From the NCBI GenBank assembly GCA_001797335.1, contig MGPE01000005.1, forward strand, positions 153,013 to 217,012: 64,000 nucleotides of DNA, read 5' to 3'. Made by a program: the position numbers and the translations under genes. Source of the stretch: Deltaproteobacteria bacterium GWA2_38_16. GTDB taxonomy: Bacteria; Bdellovibrionota; JACOXK01; 2-02-FULL-40-11. The notes under the pieces were generated by a model. It worked only from the letters and a program-made list of their open reading frames with translations, had not been told where the DNA came from and did no database searches. Positions within the stretch are counted from its first letter, which is position 1; every line of letters begins with the position of its first letter. This document shows, in pieces, positions 3,434-51,165 of this stretch.

Positions 3434-5210
3434 TTTTATGAGAGATGAAATCAGGATCTAAGGGTAATCCATCGGAATAGGCTATCGGAAAAATTTTAGG
3501 GGCAATGTCACAAAATTGTAATTTTATAAGAGTGGCCAATTGACTGTCTCGATTGTGATCAATGACAATGACTTTATCACAGGTTTTAATGAAATCTTTT
3601 ACTTCTTTATGGAAAGGGTAAGCTAAAACTCTAAGATATTTAAGAGATGTTTTCTTTATTTTTAAGTCATCCAGTGCTTCTTGAATGGCATGGTCATTGG
3701 TTCCTGCGCTAATAATTCCTATTTTAGCTTTGGCATCTCCTAAAACGATAGGTTTGGGTAAATATTGAGGGGCCGTATGAAATTTCTTTTCTAACCGAAG
3801 CATATTGGTTCTGTAAACGGTTGGATCTTCGGAATACCCTGCTATTTCTGTGTGTCCTGTCCCCCGTGTAAAATAAGCAGCCAGAGGATGTGGAGTGCCG
3901 GGTAGTGTTCGATAAGGGATTCCATCTTTATCAATATCTGCATATCGACCAAAGGATTTAATATTTTCTAAATCTTTAAGAGTGAGTACTTTTCCTCGAT
4001 CAAATGGACCTTTTAAATAATTAAAAGGTTCACTGGCCCAATAGTTCATTCCCAATTCTAAATCTGTCATGACAATAACGGGAGTTTGTAAACGATCAGC
4101 AATGTCGAATGATTTTGCTCCCAGCTCAAAGGCTTCTTTGACGGTGGCTGGGAATAAGAGAATATGTCTATTATCTCCATGAGAAGCAAAAGCACATTTT
4201 AAAATATCGGCTTGTTGGGTTCGTGTGGGCATCCCTGTAGAAGGTCCTACCCGTTGTACATTAACGATGACCACAGGAACTTCTGCATAATAGGCCAGTC
4301 CTAAAAATTCACTCATGAGTGAAATTCCAGGACCGGAGCTAGCCGTCATGGCACGCGCACCCATCCATCCTGCTCCAATGGCAGCACCAATGGCACAGAG
4401 CTCATCTTCTACTTGAATGACGGCTATTTTTTTCTTTTTTGTTTCAGGATCTGTTCGCAATCTTTGTCCATAGCTATCCATCGCTTCATTTAAAGAACTG
4501 GCCGGAGTAATGGGGTACCAAGCATCTACCGTACACCCTCCCATAATACACCCTAAAGCGGTGGCGGCATTGCCTTCGATGACAATCTGGGGTTTGGCGT
4601 TTTTGATTTTTTCATAAGAATAAGGATCTTTTTTGGGTAAATGTTCTTTGGCATATTGAATCCCCAGATCAATGGCTTTTAAATTGACATCAATGGCTTT
4701 TTGTTTTTTCTTAAAACTGTCTTCAATAACACTTCGTAAAATGTTTTTATCAAGGCCAAAAATTTCTGCCATCACTCCCACATAGAGCGTATTGGTGAGA
4801 AGCGATCTGAGTCTGGGGGTATCAAACGTATTTTTGGCAATCTTTGTAAGAGGAACAGGATAATAGGTAACGTTTTCTTTAGGAGTTCCAATGTTAAGAG
4901 TGGTTTCATCATAGATCACGACATCTCCTGGATGAACTTCTGCCAAGTCTTGACCCATAGAGGCAGGATTGACAGCTATGAGAACTTCTGAATGTCGTTT
5001 CATCGATTGATAGCCTTTGGGATTGGTCCGAATATAAAACCAGGTGGGAAGTCCTTGGATATTAGAAGGAAAAAGATTTTTAGCAGAGGTTGGAATACCC
5101 ATTCTGACCAAGGTTTTAAAAAGAATATTGTTTGCCGATTGGCTTCCCGTACCATTAATGGTTGCAATTTTAATGGTGAAGTTATTGACAATTTTTTGAG
5201 GCGTACTCAT
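3408..5210 (-). CDS. korA: 2-oxoacid:ferredoxin oxidoreductase alpha subunit, KorA-like
   Basis: 600 aa; N-terminal KIATINGTGSQSAN motif and length typical of KorA/OorA-type alpha subunits; translationally coupled to korB. Confidence 0.85.
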   Translation of the reverse strand: MSTPQKIVNNFTIKIATINGTGSQSANNILFKTLVRMGIPTSAKNLFPSNIQGLPTWFYIRTNPKGYQSMKRHSEVLIAVNPASMGQDLAEVHPGDVVIYDETTLNIGTPKENVTYYPVPLTKIAKNTFDTPRLRSLLTNTLYVGVMAEIFGLDKNILRSVIEDSFKKKQKAIDVNLKAIDLGIQYAKEHLPKKDPYSYEKIKNAKPQIVIEGNAATALGCIMGGCTVDAWYPITPASSLNEAMDSYGQRLRTDPETKKKKIAVIQVEDELCAIGAAIGAGWMGARAMTASSGPGISLMSEFLGLAYYAEVPVVIVNVQRVGPSTGMPTRTQQADILKCAFASHGDNRHILLFPATVKEAFELGAKSFDIADRLQTPVIVMTDLELGMNYWASEPFNYLKGPFDRGKVLTLKDLENIKSFGRYADIDKDGIPYRTLPGTPHPLAAYFTRGTGHTEIAGYSEDPTVYRTNMLRLEKKFHTAPQYLPKPIVLGDAKAKIGIISAGTNDHAIQEALDDLKIKKTSLKYLRVLAYPFHKEVKDFIKTCDKVIVIDHNRDSQLATLIKLQFCDIAPKIFPIAYSDGLPLDPDFISHKIEEAIAHG

Positions 5211-46253: not shown

Positions 46254-46718
46254 TCATTCCCGACTCGATCGGGAATCCAGTCTCCTTACCTTAAAATAAG
46301 AAAGTAAAATAATAAAGAAAATTGGAAAATCAATAGCAGCTCCTAATCCATAGAGAAGATTTTCGGTTCGAAAAAGCGCACCCATAAAAAAAATACTGCT
46401 GCTGATTTTTGCGATTAATACCCCTCTGATAGCACTATGGTTTAAAGGAAATTTTGAACCTTCATAAGAAAGGTAGGAAATGGTCATCATCATCGATCCG
46501 GCCAGTGCCACCCAAAAGTATTCACTATTTAAAGGAAGTCCCAAAAGGCGCAACGTCATATCAGGGCGGATGACAAAAAAAAGGCCAACACCTAGAAAGC
46601 AAATAGACCAAAAAAGCATTTCTTTTTGAAATATTTTTAAAGTCACAGAAAGTACTATGAACTTAAAATCGTAAAGATGCAACGAGAGATAATAAAACCT
46701 ACCCATGCTTCGTTTCAT
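46254..46718 (-). CDS. small hypothetical membrane protein (true start may be the internal Met MLFWS)
   Basis: Hydrophobic ORF; annotated N-terminus is encoded by direct-repeat copy 1, so the start is uncertain. Confidence 0.35.
   Translation of the reverse strand: MKRSMGRFYYLSLHLYDFKFIVLSVTLKIFQKEMLFWSICFLGVGLFFVIRPDMTLRLLGLPLNSEYFWVALAGSMMMTISYLSYEGSKFPLNHSAIRGVLIAKISSSIFFMGALFRTENLLYGLGAAIDFPIFFIILLSYFKVRRLDSRSSRE
46663..46696. repeat. 34-bp perfect direct repeat, copy 1 (left boundary of the TA cassette)
   Basis: TTAAAATCGTAAAGATGCAACGAGAGATAATAAA identical to 47735..47768. Confidence 0.8.
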
Positions 46719-46770
46719 AAAAAGTAATAATATATTGCTTTTAATGTAATATTATGTTACATTTTAAGTA

Positions 46771-47325
46771 ATGATTATGAGGACATTTTACGTCAGTGTT
46801 CTTGAGTTAGCACTTTTGGAGAAGCTTATCGTTTTTGGGCGCTCTTATACACATGAGTTGTCTAAAAATCTAACTATTTCGCCTGCCCATGTGAATCGAC
46901 TGTGCCATGCGCTGAGAAAGCGGCAGATATTGAATGTTTCTTCTCAGGAGAATCGAAAATTTTTTGAGTTGAATTATCAGTGTTTGTTAACAAGAGAATT
47001 GCTACGGTTTATAACCGTAATTAAAATAAAAAATTCTAAATATTTTCGAAAATTAGGAGAAATATGCCCTTTTGGAGTTTTTGGAAGTTTTTCGGAAGGG
47101 ATGCAAACAAAAGAAAGCGATTTGGATCTATGGGTATTTTCTGACCGTTCTTTTGAAAAAAAAATCCGTTTAATTATAAATGATATTGAAAAAGAATGGG
47201 AACATATCATTAATATTGTTTATCTGGATAAAAATAAGCTTGAAATAATGAAAAAAAATGATCCAGAATTTTATTATCGCCTTCGATCCCAATCGCTTAC
47301 AGAAAGGGGAGATATTTTTGAATAA
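46771..47325 (+). CDS. minimal nucleotidyltransferase (MNT) with N-terminal wHTH; MntA-like antitoxin
   Basis: GVFGSFSEGMQTKESDLDLWVF (GS...DxD NTase motif); followed by an overlapping HEPN gene. Confidence 0.7.
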   Translation: MIMRTFYVSVLELALLEKLIVFGRSYTHELSKNLTISPAHVNRLCHALRKRQILNVSSQENRKFFELNYQCLLTRELLRFITVIKIKNSKYFRKLGEICPFGVFGSFSEGMQTKESDLDLWVFSDRSFEKKIRLIINDIEKEWEHIINIVYLDKNKLEIMKKNDPEFYYRLRSQSLTERGDIFE

Positions 47326-47746
47326 ACTTAAAGATTGTTTTGAAAAGAAGTTTTTAGTCAGAACGCGCCCTGAACCTGAATTAGCTAAAAAATCTTTAAA
47401 ACGTGGTTTAGCAACGATTGAGGATGTACCCAAAGCTTTAAAAGCAGATTTAGATGAGCTGGCTGAACAAAGGCTGTATCAAAGTGTGTTCCATGGAGTA
47501 AAAGCATTACTCTATAAAGATGGCATTAAAGAAAGATCACATATTTGCGTCAGTTTATATTTTAAAGAAACGTATCAGAAGTTTTTTTCTAAAGATCTTT
47601 TAACCTTATTGGATCGATTAAGGGATGTTCGCCATGAATCTCAATATGGTCTTGATGCCGTTGCCATGAATTCAGAACAAATTCAAAATTGGTTAGCAGA
47701 GGCAGAACAACTTTTAAAAGTAATTTCTCAGCTTTTAAAATCGTAA
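47319..47746 (+). CDS. HEPN-domain protein, HepT-like toxin (probable TTG start)
   Basis: R-x4-HxxQY motif RDVRHESQYG; ORF track opens at 47258 but overlaps the MNT gene, so the start is inferred. Confidence 0.6.
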
Positions 47747-47768
47747 AGATGCAACGAGAGATAATAAA
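47735..47768. repeat. 34-bp perfect direct repeat, copy 2 (right boundary of the TA cassette; overlaps the 3' end of the porin-like gene)
   Basis: Identical to 46663..46696. Confidence 0.8.
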
Positions 47769-48958
47769 TTATCAGCAGTGTCGTTAATGCCTGATCCCTT
47801 GGTATAATTAATATCGTATCCTAATTTGAGGAGCATATTATCAGAGCATCGATATCCCCCACCAAAAGAATATCGGGAGTAAACGTTGGCCGTAACACTA
47901 TTTAAAGAAGCGGTGGTAGAAGCCCCTCTTAGTTTAATGGTACTAACGCGACCGGCCAGATAAAAATGAGACAAGACGTTCCATACATCCGGTAAATTCC
48001 ATAATGATTCTACAAAACCAAAATGAGCTTGTCTTTTTTGAGCATTCCCGCCGGTAGATCCATCTTTAAAAGCACCCAAAGAAAATCTAAAAAATGCCTG
48101 GCTATCAGAATATGCAGGAGGATTTAAAGGTTTTTTGCCTTTGCCTAAATCATATCTAAAATCTATTTCTGCCACCTGCCTTGTCCAATTTGTTGCACCG
48201 CTAGCAGGAGCTGTAATTCCTGCAATAGACATGTCTGCTGAAGATGCTTTTAATTTTCCAGAATGGTAGTAACTGGTGCTGATAAAGAGAGGATCTATCG
48301 GAGTGTAAAATAATCTTCCTAAAAAAGATTTTCCTTGGCCAGAATCCGATCCTACAACACTATTTCCATTTCCGACGGCTACAACCCATATTTTCCCTGA
48401 TAGCTCTATCCCCTCATCGGTGACGCCTACGTTTGCAGCTGAGTTAGAAGGAAGGATGCCTTCAACGACGTTATTGGTTTGGGTTTCTTCTCCAAAGGGC
48501 TGTTTAAATCTTCCCAGTCTGCCGCTTACATTAAACCACGTATTTCTTAAAGCGGGAATAAAATCTTTGGCTTGTAAAAATAAATAATCGACTAAAGGAG
48601 TGTTGTTCCCCCCATTATTTAAATTAAATCGAAAAGTAGCAGAATTGAAATCATCTGCCTGGAACATAAACACCAATTTTGCTTCAGGTACTTCAAAAGA
48701 ACCACTTCTAAAGCTAGAGGTTTGTCCTTGGGAATTATAAAAAGCACTTGCAGCTCTTCCGCTGAGCTTTAATTTAGAAAGCAGATTTGAAAGATCAACT
48801 TTGGGAGATTCTTCCCCATAGGCAAATGGGGATATGAATAAAGAAATTAAAATAATTGTTATGATGGAGTGTGGCTTCATAGAGTAATCCTTTCTTCTTT
48901 CCAGATGGGAGCTTGTTTTTTTAATTCGGCAATGACGTATTCGCAGGCTTTGAAACAC
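47735..48958 (-). CDS. outer-membrane beta-barrel porin-like protein
   Basis: Signal peptide MKPHSIITIILISLFISPFAYG (likely true start about 48880); alternating amphipathic strands; C-terminal SLRF with terminal Phe. Confidence 0.55.
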   Translation of the reverse strand: MFQSLRIRHCRIKKTSSHLERRKDYSMKPHSIITIILISLFISPFAYGEESPKVDLSNLLSKLKLSGRAASAFYNSQGQTSSFRSGSFEVPEAKLVFMFQADDFNSATFRFNLNNGGNNTPLVDYLFLQAKDFIPALRNTWFNVSGRLGRFKQPFGEETQTNNVVEGILPSNSAANVGVTDEGIELSGKIWVVAVGNGNSVVGSDSGQGKSFLGRLFYTPIDPLFISTSYYHSGKLKASSADMSIAGITAPASGATNWTRQVAEIDFRYDLGKGKKPLNPPAYSDSQAFFRFSLGAFKDGSTGGNAQKRQAHFGFVESLWNLPDVWNVLSHFYLAGRVSTIKLRGASTTASLNSVTANVYSRYSFGGGYRCSDNMLLKLGYDINYTKGSGINDTADNLLSLVASLRF

Positions 48959-49269
48959 TCTTTTCGATGTTCACCGGTAACGCCCATCCAAACCGCAATT
49001 TCTCCGAGTTGTAAGGTTCCTGTTCGATGATGAACATGAATGTCTAAAACAGAAAATTCTTTTTTGGCTTTATCAATTATTTTTTTTATTTCTTTAATCG
49101 CCATGGGCGTATAAGCTTCGTAATGGAGTTCTTTTACTTTTTTTCCTTTGTTCCATTGCCGAACCCAGCCTTCAAAGCTGACATAAGCGCCTGCCATGAT
49201 ATTTTTTCTTAATTTTTTAGAATGTATTGTGGGATTTAAAGGTTTGGTCCAAATTTTAACGATGGACAT
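48877..49269 (-). CDS. moaE: molybdopterin synthase catalytic subunit
   Basis: GAYVSFEGWVR...VHHRTGTLQLGE...APIWKEE. Confidence 0.85.
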   Translation of the reverse strand: MSIVKIWTKPLNPTIHSKKLRKNIMAGAYVSFEGWVRQWNKGKKVKELHYEAYTPMAIKEIKKIIDKAKKEFSVLDIHVHHRTGTLQLGEIAVWMGVTGEHRKECFKACEYVIAELKKQAPIWKEERITL

Positions 49270-49275
49270 AGTGTT

Positions 49276-49542
49276 TTATCCTCCTGCAACCGGAGGAATA
49301 AAACACACGGTATCCCCTTCTTTAAGAGAGGTATTAAAATGAGTATATGCTTCATTAATGGCAGCGGAAAGATAGGGAGTATCCAAAAAATGAGGATATT
49401 TTTTCTTAAGTTCCTGATGGAGTTCTAAAAGAGTGCTTTGATTGGGAAGGTCTATTTTTTCTTCTTTTTTTTGAGTGATGGTTTTTAAATGAGCAAAATA
49501 TAATACATTTACTTTCATGAGCTTTCGATTAACATGGGACAA
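49276..49542 (-). CDS. moaD: molybdopterin synthase sulfur-carrier subunit
   Basis: Small ubiquitin-like protein ending in Gly-Gly (PPVAGG); adjacent to moaE. Confidence 0.8.
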   Translation of the reverse strand: MSHVNRKLMKVNVLYFAHLKTITQKKEEKIDLPNQSTLLELHQELKKKYPHFLDTPYLSAAINEAYTHFNTSLKEGDTVCFIPPVAGG

Positions 49543-49554
49543 TTCTTTAAGAGT

Positions 49555-49568
49555 ATGACATAGATCAT
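49555..49568 (+). promoter_or_regulatory. FNR-like palindrome (ATGA-N6-TCAT) in the moaD / mobA-moaA divergent promoter
   Basis: ATGACATAGATCAT between divergent Moco genes; same architecture as the nirK boxes. Confidence 0.35.
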
Positions 49569-49611
49569 ATTTTTACCCAAAAGTCTATATAGAATACCTT
49601 TTTGTTTCAAG

Positions 49612-51165
49612 ATGAGCCATCATATAACATTAGCTATTTTAGTGGGGGGGGCTTCTCGTCGAATGGGGACTTCTCAAGACAAAGGGCTTTTATCTGTCCA
49701 TGGGGAGGCTTTAGTTTATCGTCTCATTAGAAAACTTTCTTTTTTATTTCAAGAAATCTTAATTATTTGTTCTTCGGAAACTCAAAAACAAAAATATGAT
49801 TTCGTGCTCGGAATGACACCTCAGATTATTGTGGATGAAAGTGGGAGTGATCGAGCGGCGTATTATGGACTGTGTGCAGCGCTTAAACAGAGTTCCACAG
49901 AAAAAGTGTTGGTGATTCCGGTAGATGCTCAAGGGGTGGATCCAGGTGTTATTAAAAAACTTCTATTGTCTCCCTCATTTCCTGTTGCCTATGAAAATAC
50001 ACCTTTCCCATCGGTGTGGCTCAAACAACATTTATCTTTTGTCATTCCGAGCACGAAGTGCGAGGAATCCCTAAGTATTTTAGATCTTTTGAAAAAACTT
50101 TCTACGACCTGGATACGTCCCACAGAGTGTGAAGACATACTTTTAAAAATGAATTTAAATACGAGAGAAGATGTTCGAAACTATTTTGGAGAGCCTCTGT
50201 GCGATTCTTGGGGGAGACAATTAAATTACTTAAGACTTTCTCTAACTGAATCGTGCAACATGGCATGCCAATATTGCTTGCCCAAAGGTTTTCATCAATC
50301 AACCCATGAACAGATGCTGACTCAAACCGCCCAGGTTATTTTAAAAGCGTTTCGAAAGTTAGGGTTTGAAAAAGTGCGTTTTACTGGCGGTGAGCCTACG
50401 CTTCATCCGGGACTTTTGTATCTTATTTCGGATGCTCGGTCCTTGGGATACGAAACTATTTCTCTCACTACCAATGGAAGTTTTATTCAAGATCTTACGT
50501 CTTTAATAGAGGCTGGGCTTACCCATATCAATATCAGTTTAGATACCCTAGATCCTACGACATTTCAAAAACTTACAGGGAGTCATTATCTATCTAAAAT
50601 TTTGGGTCTTATTGATGAGGCCTTAGAGAAGGGATTAAATGTAAAATTGAATACGGTTCTTCTTCGGGAGATTAATTTAAATCACATAGAACCATTACTC
50701 CATTGGGCGAAAGATCGCCCCTTAACCCTTCGGTTTATTGAACTTATGCCAATTCAAAATCACACAGAGTTTTTTAACAGAAATTTTGTTTCAAATACCG
50801 AAATTCAGTCTTTGGTTCGATCGTTGGGGTATGCGCCTATCTGTCATCCCCGACTTGATCGGGGATCCATGGAACCTTTAGGCCCCGCGGTTTTGTGGTC
50901 TCATCCAGAGTTTTTGGCCAAAGTAGGTTTTATCAGTCCTTGGTCGTGTAATTTCTGTGATCGCTGCAATCGATTGCGGGTGACTGCCAGAGCACATCTT
51001 CGTTTATGTTTATTTGGAAAAGAAGAGATAAAACTTCCGGCAGAACAAGGAGATGAAGTGGTGAGTCAATTTATTCGATCGGTTCTTCATCAAAAGCCCC
51101 TCTCGCATGATTTAGAAAAAGGGGATAGAGGAAGTTTAAGTTATTTTAAAGTAGTGGGAGGATAA
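49612..51165 (+). CDS. moaA: fused MobA-like molybdenum cofactor guanylyltransferase / MoaA GTP 3',8-cyclase (radical SAM)
   Basis: N-terminal AILVGGASRRMGTSQDKGLL (MobA motif); C-terminal CNMACQYC (CxxxCxxC) and auxiliary cluster cysteines CNFCDRCNR...C. Confidence 0.8.
   Translation: MSHHITLAILVGGASRRMGTSQDKGLLSVHGEALVYRLIRKLSFLFQEILIICSSETQKQKYDFVLGMTPQIIVDESGSDRAAYYGLCAALKQSSTEKVLVIPVDAQGVDPGVIKKLLLSPSFPVAYENTPFPSVWLKQHLSFVIPSTKCEESLSILDLLKKLSTTWIRPTECEDILLKMNLNTREDVRNYFGEPLCDSWGRQLNYLRLSLTESCNMACQYCLPKGFHQSTHEQMLTQTAQVILKAFRKLGFEKVRFTGGEPTLHPGLLYLISDARSLGYETISLTTNGSFIQDLTSLIEAGLTHINISLDTLDPTTFQKLTGSHYLSKILGLIDEALEKGLNVKLNTVLLREINLNHIEPLLHWAKDRPLTLRFIELMPIQNHTEFFNRNFVSNTEIQSLVRSLGYAPICHPRLDRGSMEPLGPAVLWSHPEFLAKVGFISPWSCNFCDRCNRLRVTARAHLRLCLFGKEEIKLPAEQGDEVVSQFIRSVLHQKPLSHDLEKGDRGSLSYFKVVGG

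Follow-up and report, generated by a model that had tools for sequence, protein, structure and literature searches.

A predicted MNT/HEPN toxin-antitoxin cassette behind a porin gene, bracketed by a duplication of the gene's 3' end: a probable insertion without a dedicated recombinase

The window analysed here, a 64-kb stretch of DNA, contains a two-gene cassette that lies behind the stop codon of a porin-like gene and is bracketed by two copies of a 34-bp sequence. Its genes encode a minimal nucleotidyltransferase (MNT) and a HEPN protein, and the pair is predicted to be a toxin-antitoxin or addiction module. The features of the locus, in window coordinates, are as follows.

46254..46646, minus strand: small membrane-protein gene, as given in the ORF list; the cassette now separates it from the porin gene
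46663..46696, no strand assigned: direct repeat copy 1, an exact 34-mer; a stub of the porin 3' end, non-coding, that runs on into the native downstream DNA
46697..46770, plus strand: 74 bp ahead of the MNT gene within the cassette, presumed to contain its promoter/operator
46771..47325, plus strand: MNT gene, 184 aa; N-terminal winged-helix-like domain fused to a minimal nucleotidyltransferase (GSFSEGMQTKESDLDLW)
47318..47746, plus strand: HEPN gene, 142 aa, TTG start; PF05168 HEPN match at 1.6e-12; motif RLRDVRHESQY
47735..47768, no strand assigned: direct repeat copy 2; functional last 10 codons and stop of the porin gene
47735..48880, minus strand: porin-like outer-membrane protein gene, 381 aa; presumed target of the insertion; 219 homologues, some with PF13609 Porin_4

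The insert between the repeats measures 1,038 bp (46697-47734) and holds only the overlapping wHTH-MNT/HEPN pair with its own upstream region. A sequence-only reading of this DNA had described the bracketed segment as carrying these two genes and neither an integrase nor a transposase, a description that both the ORFs and the Pfam annotation bear out. Pfam annotation also revealed no recombinase, integrase or transposase within ~6 kb on each side, where only molybdenum-cofactor, oxidoreductase and membrane genes were found. The insert is foreign in composition, being the lowest-GC stretch of the 64-kb window (32.5% vs 38.4% for the window), and it is transcribed opposite to the flanking operon.

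Residues 90-161 of the MNT protein match PF18765 (7.8e-8) and PF01909 (5.9e-7), and the GS...DxD motif of the nucleotidyltransferase fold is present; matches to an Lrs14-type HTH and to MntA are weak, each falling below its cut-off. The wHTH-MNT family is small, with 178 representatives among 1.84 billion proteins (E<=1e-3), nearly all of them 175-190 aa long. The HEPN gene overlaps the MNT gene by 8 bp, and its last 12 bases (four codons including the stop) lie inside repeat copy 2. PF05168 is the sole Pfam match of the HEPN protein, and its nearest solved structure is that of the UPF0332 protein AF0298 (2hsb). A conserved motif, TTGCTTTT(T)A.GTAATATT.TGTTACATTT, precedes the MNT homologues at three related loci (L021, L024 and L025); it is the presumed promoter/operator of the cassette.

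The 34-mer, TTAAAATCGTAAAGATGCAACGAGAGATAATAAA, is present in the 64-kb window as two exact copies, at 46663-46696 and 47735-47768 (34/34 bp identical), confirming the coordinates and the perfect identity that the sequence-only reading had given. Because the bases beside the two copies differ on both sides (left c/t, right a/t), the repeat is exactly 34 bp long. A search of the window for further copies returned these two only, even when three mismatches were allowed (chance expectation 0), and among the window's direct repeats of 24 bp and longer the 34-mer alone is perfect, the others being at most 81% identical. Its 26-nt core has no exact match in the viral collection, and within the 34-mer we found neither dyad symmetry nor inverted arms.

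Copy 2 encodes the end of the porin-like protein (LLSLVASLRF, followed by the stop codon), as had been read from the sequence. The protein has a terminal F and a signal-peptide-like N-terminus, and its C-terminus, DNLLSLVASLRF, agrees with the consensus DNLLSALVATQF of 120 homologues. This match to a conserved consensus identifies the 34-mer as native porin sequence; what the repeat duplicates is thus the 3' terminus of the porin gene itself. Copy 1 had been placed at the start of the next small gene. On the minus strand, a gap of 16 nt separates it from the small membrane-protein gene, which probably begins at a GTG (46646); if that gene is extended to its most distant possible start, an ATG inside the cassette (46718), the ORF takes in copy 1. 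Alternative gene calls give the small protein 121, 130, 142, 150 or 154 aa, and the 154-aa call begins within the cassette. Stub and cassette together give the downstream gene a false N-terminus in most automatic annotations. In the expected original layout, the small membrane-protein gene would have followed the porin gene directly, with a spacing of 16 nt. The junction predicted for an empty site reads GACACTGCTGATAATTTATTATCTCTCGTTGCATCTTTACGATTTTAAGTTCATAGTACTTTCTGTGAC on the minus strand, and that predicted for an excision circle reads, on the plus strand, GTAATTTCTCAGCTT, then the 34-mer, then ACCTACCCATGCTTCG.

Look-ups of the porin and MNT proteins in public assemblies retrieved 20 contigs, which come from different samples and assemblers. 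The source organism is the 'Deltaproteobacteria bacterium' GWA2_38_16 / RIFCSPLOWO2_01_FULL_38_9, from groundwater. Eighteen of the 20 contigs contain positions 46600-47830 exactly, with both copies of the repeat, and the remaining two (L008 and L010) stop within the cassette; contig L054 starts inside the repeat. Since the exact region recurs in 18 contigs of such varied origin, the repeat-bracketed structure is real and fixed in this population. We found no point in support of an assembly artefact or chimera, even counting the contig ends within the cassette and the repeat. Against it stand the identical 1.2-kb region in all 18 contigs and a repeat that, at 34 bp, is below the k-mer length of the assemblers used, and the chance of an artefact is virtually negligible.

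We then turned to related loci, which are distant relatives (23-65% identity) from metagenomes and genomes. The genome collection yielded only distant relatives, the viral collection yielded no relatives of the window MNT or of the MNT from a phage-region locus (L034), and neither the genome nor the metagenome scan returned the window's own contig. For 34 evaluable cassettes we compared the left flank with the right, counting a direct repeat at E<=1e-5. Flanking direct repeats were present at 8/34 related cassettes vs 8/168 control positions (Fisher p=0.0014), a moderate enrichment that depends on excluding repeat-rich genomes; all eight control matches fall in three phage contigs rich in small palindromic repeats. 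One of the related loci, L082, has a 246-bp repeat that we rejected as a target duplication, as it is really a duplicated UPF0175 antitoxin gene in a toxin-antitoxin island. With L082 set aside, 7/34 related cassettes have on both sides a terminal segment of an adjacent gene; these segments are unrelated to one another and range from 32 to ~200 bp. The following are among the duplicated segments.

L026: last ~25 codons and stop of a PAS gene, 73+ bp; copies 94.5% identical
L093: last 18 codons and stop (55 bp) of an NFACT-R_1-domain gene; copies 87% identical
L042: 37 bp, made up of a gene end and at least 21 nt past it; copies 100% identical
L087: first ~66 codons of an ABC ATPase gene, exactly from the ATG; copies ~80% identical
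L047: start of a small lipoprotein gene, 32 bp; copies 91% identical

The junction at L093 falls within the HEPN gene, whose truncated form directly abuts the stub. In five cases, namely the window, L026, L034, L093 and L087, the copies cease to be similar precisely at the ORF edge on the cassette side. Synonymous differences between copies outnumber non-synonymous ones by 5:1 at L026 and by 6:1 at L093, and at L087 nearly all differences are at third positions. As the differences at these three loci are mostly synonymous, the copies would descend from two functional alleles and not from the decay of one. The stub at L034 carries mostly non-synonymous changes relative to the portal gene end, as expected of a decaying stub. 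An 11-mer, AGCATGGGTAG, adjoins the stub both in the window and at L026; it was not found at the other junctions.

Several kinds of element were considered for the cassette and rejected. A transposon, insertion sequence or MITE was rejected on the absence of terminal inverted repeats from the insert (the best end-to-end inverted match scored 8.5, a value equalled by 16% of shuffles) and on the variation of the related cassettes' duplications from 32 to ~200 bp. An integron gene cassette was set aside for want of an attC-like palindrome and of a nearby intI, and on account of the cassette's own upstream control region. There is no reverse transcriptase in or near the segment, and the repeats are identical and so show no adenine-specific mismatches, which disposes of a diversity-generating retroelement. 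A dif-like site was rejected because the 34-mer contains no inverted repeats or palindrome.

The repeats might instead be the marks of site-specific integration, the 34-mers being the attL and attR of a small non-autonomous element that brought a replacement porin 3' end and was integrated by a tyrosine or serine recombinase acting in trans. Like elements that integrate into gene ends, the repeat covers the gene's 3' end up to the stop codon, and the synonymous differences between the copies at L026, L093 and L087 resemble an element-borne replacement end. However, neither the cassette nor the ~6 kb around it encodes a recombinase, the 34-mer lacks symmetry or inverted arms and occurs only twice in 64 kb, and its 26-nt core is absent from the viral collection. 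The related cassettes' repeats, moreover, share neither sequence nor length, and the L093 junction cuts into the HEPN gene itself. Because the repeats are unrelated, vary from 32 to ~200 bp and occur without a recombinase, a conserved attachment site or a transposase is unlikely, and we regard site-specific integration as quite improbable. The sequence-only reading had spoken of a 'site-specific insertion or duplication'. An insertion that duplicates its target does fit, with the porin 3' end duplicated and an empty site available for a homologous phage cassette, but the 'site-specific' part of that proposal finds no support, given unrelated repeats of variable length, no dyad symmetry, no terminal inverted repeats and no recombinase within ~6 kb.

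We found no empty site in the source species, as all retrieved contigs and several genome bins are filled (look-ups by porin, MNT and small-gene variant proteins). Nor did relatives provide one: the closest porin homologue, at 56% identity, has different surroundings, and the most syntenic porin relative (L050, 51% identity) lies in a molybdenum-cofactor cluster with a different downstream gene. The PAS protein of L026 has no close homologue but itself, and with 5/5 contigs filled, no empty site was found for that locus.

The same MNT/HEPN pair is present at L023, L026, L034, L047 and L092. At L034, in a phage region, the homologous pair is located right after the portal stop codon, between the portal and scaffold genes, and it is absent from 24/24 phage contigs related to L034 (portal identity 54-94%). 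In the three empty phage contigs that were aligned, a 61-bp segment is present as a single copy, and the portal stop is followed by 5 nt and then by the scaffold ribosome-binding site and start. In L034 itself, the insert is followed by a diverged copy of the portal gene's last 61 nt, which leads straight into the scaffold ribosome-binding site. As judged from these alignments, L034 is a verified case in which a homologous cassette was inserted and the end of its target gene duplicated. That an insertion also took place at the porin locus itself is argued by analogy with such cases and from context.

The empty phage sites bear as well on a chance insertion between tandem copies of the porin 3' end that were there beforehand, a situation that corresponds to the third class of repeat-flanked gene complexes in Furuta et al. 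(PMC2853133). The same architecture recurs at unrelated genes, however, and the empty sites for L034 hold one copy, not two; we consider pre-existing repeats very improbable.

Alternatively, the target could have been duplicated in place, without donor homology, either by insertion at a staggered double-strand break with nicks 34 bp apart or by template switching with the fork re-entering 34 bp back. The window's two identical copies with sharp edges on both sides agree with this, as do the mostly non-synonymous changes in the L034 stub, which are what decay after in-place duplication would leave. In-place duplication does not predict, however, that the repeat ends exactly at a stop or start codon, as it does in the window and at L026, L034, L093 and L087, nor that differences between copies are mostly synonymous, and the cassette offers no cause for a DNA break, HEPN proteins being RNases and not DNases. 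Furuta et al. did consider double-strand breakage the common property behind long target duplications (PMC2853133), a point in its favour. On balance we hold in-place duplication to be rather unlikely.

Homology-anchored import is the route that we favour, because the coincidence of repeat edges with ORF edges and the synonymous differences between copies fit it best. A foreign MNT/HEPN module would have inserted immediately behind the porin stop codon, splitting the porin gene from the small membrane-protein gene, with no dedicated recombinase involved. The donor would be a DNA fragment of a relative, carrying the cassette together with the adjacent porin end. Such a fragment could integrate via short homology, either circularised and by a single crossover or through one homologous and one illegitimate junction, and the outcome would be a duplicate of the segment between the two junctions. 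At the porin locus the last 34 bp of the gene would have been duplicated, one copy completing the porin and the other remaining beyond the insert as a dead stub. The similarity of donor and recipient would end where the gene ends, while the other, illegitimate junction would fall at a variable place. Recombination of one 34-mer with the other would remove the antitoxin gene along with the toxin gene, and the insert would therefore probably be hard to lose.

Several points count against this route or limit it. A length of 34 bp is near the minimum usually thought to support RecA recombination, which speaks against a homologous anchor of this size. Experimental homology-facilitated illegitimate recombination usually yielded deletions and not duplications (PMC3240628), which likewise counts against it. 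The route also presupposes a donor in which the cassette already lay behind the porin gene, and the first insertion is left unexplained. The window copies are identical, and the window alone does not separate in-place duplication from homology-anchored import. Weighing all this, we assign a probability of roughly 55% to the full statement, that is, a recombinase-free insertion of the MNT/HEPN pair with target duplication, anchored by homology and stabilised by addiction. Taken separately, a recombinase-free insertion with target duplication is highly probable, and the homology-anchored route is tentative, at a little under even odds.

Although toxin-antitoxin pairs are well known to be mobile, no vehicle is apparent for most of their chromosomal copies. 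The porin locus is a clean example of a footprint that has so far been documented for restriction-modification genes: two genes with the DNA upstream of them, and a perfect duplication of the last 34 bp of the target gene. Very distant relatives of the cassette are surrounded by the same footprint, and for one of these an empty site has been verified. Taken by itself, the porin locus is ordinary genome flux; what is notable is the recurrence of the footprint and its regularity at ORF edges. We raise, as a doubtful generalisation, that MNT/HEPN pairs, and perhaps toxin-antitoxin modules generally, spread without a recombinase of their own, as short fragments that carry the end of a neighbouring gene, integrate through that homology and leave a duplication at the ORF edge, with addiction guarding against deletion. 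If true, this would give a concrete answer to the old question of how toxin-antitoxin modules move, and a single mode of mobility shared with restriction-modification systems. A general pattern would point to recombinase-free, homology-anchored entry of addiction modules into operons.

Parts of this scheme have counterparts in known systems. In E. coli, integration of a shortened homologous fragment by a single crossover gave duplications of 109-950 bp (PMC3240628), and T6SS effector-immunity modules have been suggested to enter genomes in a comparable way (PMC5361080). The porin locus resembles these products of homology-facilitated illegitimate recombination or single-crossover integration in what would be one homologous anchor, partly duplicated, and in the orphaned gene 3' ends. 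The events of PMC3240628, in contrast, took place in the laboratory and had anchors of hundreds of bp, whereas here the duplicated anchor would be only 34 bp.

We assign the pair to the MNT-HEPN class, predicted to consist of mobile two-gene modules. Makarova, Wolf and Koonin 2009 (PMC2701414) predicted that these modules (COG1708/COG2250) are mobile toxin-antitoxin systems and noted them inside operons of one strain but not another. The genes of that class are adjacent, co-oriented and overlapping, as here, and patchily distributed, but flanking repeats or an insertion mechanism are not described there (PMC2701414). Membership of the characterised type VII HepT/MntA family was rejected on both the MntA-family test and the DUF86 HepT test. 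The HEPN protein is of the PF05168/UPF0332 type and not a DUF86 (PF01934) HepT, and the MNT protein scores 22.4 bits against the MntA model NF047752 of NCBIfam (cut-off 60) and has an extra, N-terminal winged-helix-like domain.

Phage 21 and e14, which integrate in icd, resemble tRNA-targeting islands in choosing the 3' end of a gene and supplying a replacement for it. The cassette shares with such elements a direct repeat of the target gene's 3' end and a target gene that stays intact. Those elements, however, encode or depend on a site-specific recombinase with a defined core site, and here none was seen and the related cassettes have no shared core. The cassette is also like the phage 'morons', a concept reportedly due to Hendrix and colleagues, in being an independent transcription unit between two operon genes, and L034, between portal and scaffold genes, is a literal case. 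To our knowledge, morons are not defined by flanking target duplications.

Nobusato et al. are said to have described, in 2000 (in Gene 259:99), insertion with long target duplication of restriction-modification gene complexes. The term 'insertion with long target duplication' was defined for these complexes by Kobayashi's group (PMC2853133). In the restriction-modification insertions of Furuta et al. 2010 (PMC2853133), the repeats exceed 30 bp and are unique and variable, mobility genes are lacking, the insert is low in GC, and the 3' ends of genes are overlapped. Three of the five criteria used there apply to the porin locus: a complete addiction-type module lies within the repeats, the insert of 1,038 bp is below 20 kb with no mobility gene in or beside it, and the direct repeat of 34 bp is longer than 30 bp. 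The lower-GC insert, the overlap of the repeat with the 3' end of a flanking gene and the variation of the repeat from case to case are further likenesses.

The differences are that the DNA breakage suggested there as the cause has no obvious counterpart here, and that there is no same-species empty site for the porin locus, the single-copy empty site being that of the homologous L034. Among the papers listed as using the term 'insertion with long target duplication' we found no toxin-antitoxin insertion, and a search of the literature on toxin-antitoxin pairs flanked by direct repeats returned nothing on point. The cargo differs as well, and we conclude that the locus presents a known footprint with a new cargo, a toxin-antitoxin-type MNT/HEPN pair in place of a restriction-modification system.

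Loci outside the window with related MNT genes and flanking repeats include three at which the repeats copy the end of a PAS gene (L026), the end of an NFACT-R_1-domain gene (L093) or the start of an ABC ATPase gene (L087).

Flanking repeat pairs at loci with related MNT genes
L026, 3302-3381 and 4441-4520, PAS gene end
L093, 990-1046 and 2537-2593, NFACT-R_1-domain gene end
L087, ~3585-3790 and ~4786-4990, ABC ATPase gene start

At all three loci, mismatches between the repeat copies are almost all synonymous. Because the differences are so nearly confined to synonymous positions, we conclude from these alignments that the copies must have originated in two alleles of the neighbouring gene that were both functional, and not by decay of the stub, the non-coding copy.

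A second feature of the junctions is a short motif lying directly 5' of the stub copy on the coding strand of the target gene, both in the window and at L026.

Occurrences of the 11-mer AGCATGGGTAG
Window, 46699-46709, minus strand, adjoining the stub
L026, 4432-4442, adjoining the stub
L023, another locus with a related MNT gene, 1105-1115, with one mismatch

The cassette is oriented oppositely relative to the target gene in the window and at L026, yet the 11-mer keeps the same place. By a rough estimate, made post hoc, the chance of such a match is ~1e-3; the motif was absent from the other junctions we looked at.

In the window, the insertion also affects how the neighbouring small membrane-protein gene is annotated. 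Most gene callers extend this gene through window positions 46647-46718 to give a 154-aa product from an ATG at 46718, which lies within the cassette, and the resulting ORF crosses the stub in a different frame. This call's N-terminus is an annotation artefact caused by the insertion; a product of 130 aa (GTG at 46646) or 121 aa, as called by NCBI, is more plausible.

At L034, where the repeat copies the end of a phage portal gene, a small palindromic repeat of the GTCATTGCGAGG.GCGAAGCGACGCGGCAATC type lies between the portal stop codon and the HEPN end (4911-4962), and a second of this type lies within the scaffold region at about 3594-3660. Repeat matches at control positions in contigs of related phages (L055, L058 and L062) are probably due to similar repeat elements.

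The target gene in the window, which encodes the porin, sits within a molybdenum-cofactor biosynthesis cluster (47735-51165), as does a 51%-identical porin in a relative (L050, 477-6101). This shared embedding hints at a role for the porin in molybdate or tungstate uptake. In the window, the 517-aa MobA/MoaA-type gene contains both arms of a perfect 18-bp inverted repeat, TTCGTGCTCGGAATGACA / TGTCATTCCGAGCACGAA (49801-49818 and 50040-50057), 221 nt apart.

Protein searches placed the closest homologue of the window's MNT at L021 (937-1788; 52% identity, 92% of the query covered), where a truncated, 80-aa HEPN gene and a convergent HicA/HicB pair come next; together they make up a small toxin-antitoxin cluster, which has no flanking repeats. 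A 231-aa MNT variant (P0126, on a JGI contig of 2,681 bp) is the same as the window protein to residue ~157 and unrelated thereafter; it may represent a rearranged or deleted cassette allele, or a chimeric contig.

At L093, the HEPN gene is cut after ~50 codons and fused directly to the stub (2384-2536), and the repeat-bounded segment also holds an extra 210-aa gene. The MNT gene of this cassette is intact, but its toxin is inactivated. On two different contigs, L028 (866-922) and L093 (990-1046), genes of one kind, with products ending ...LD(D/E)IIRALPAG..., are followed directly behind their stop codon by the MNT/HEPN pair; no stub lies beside the pair at L028, and a CxxCxxCC-protein gene is found further downstream at L028 and on contig L094. 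The cassette seems to be a resident of this locus across a group of related organisms.
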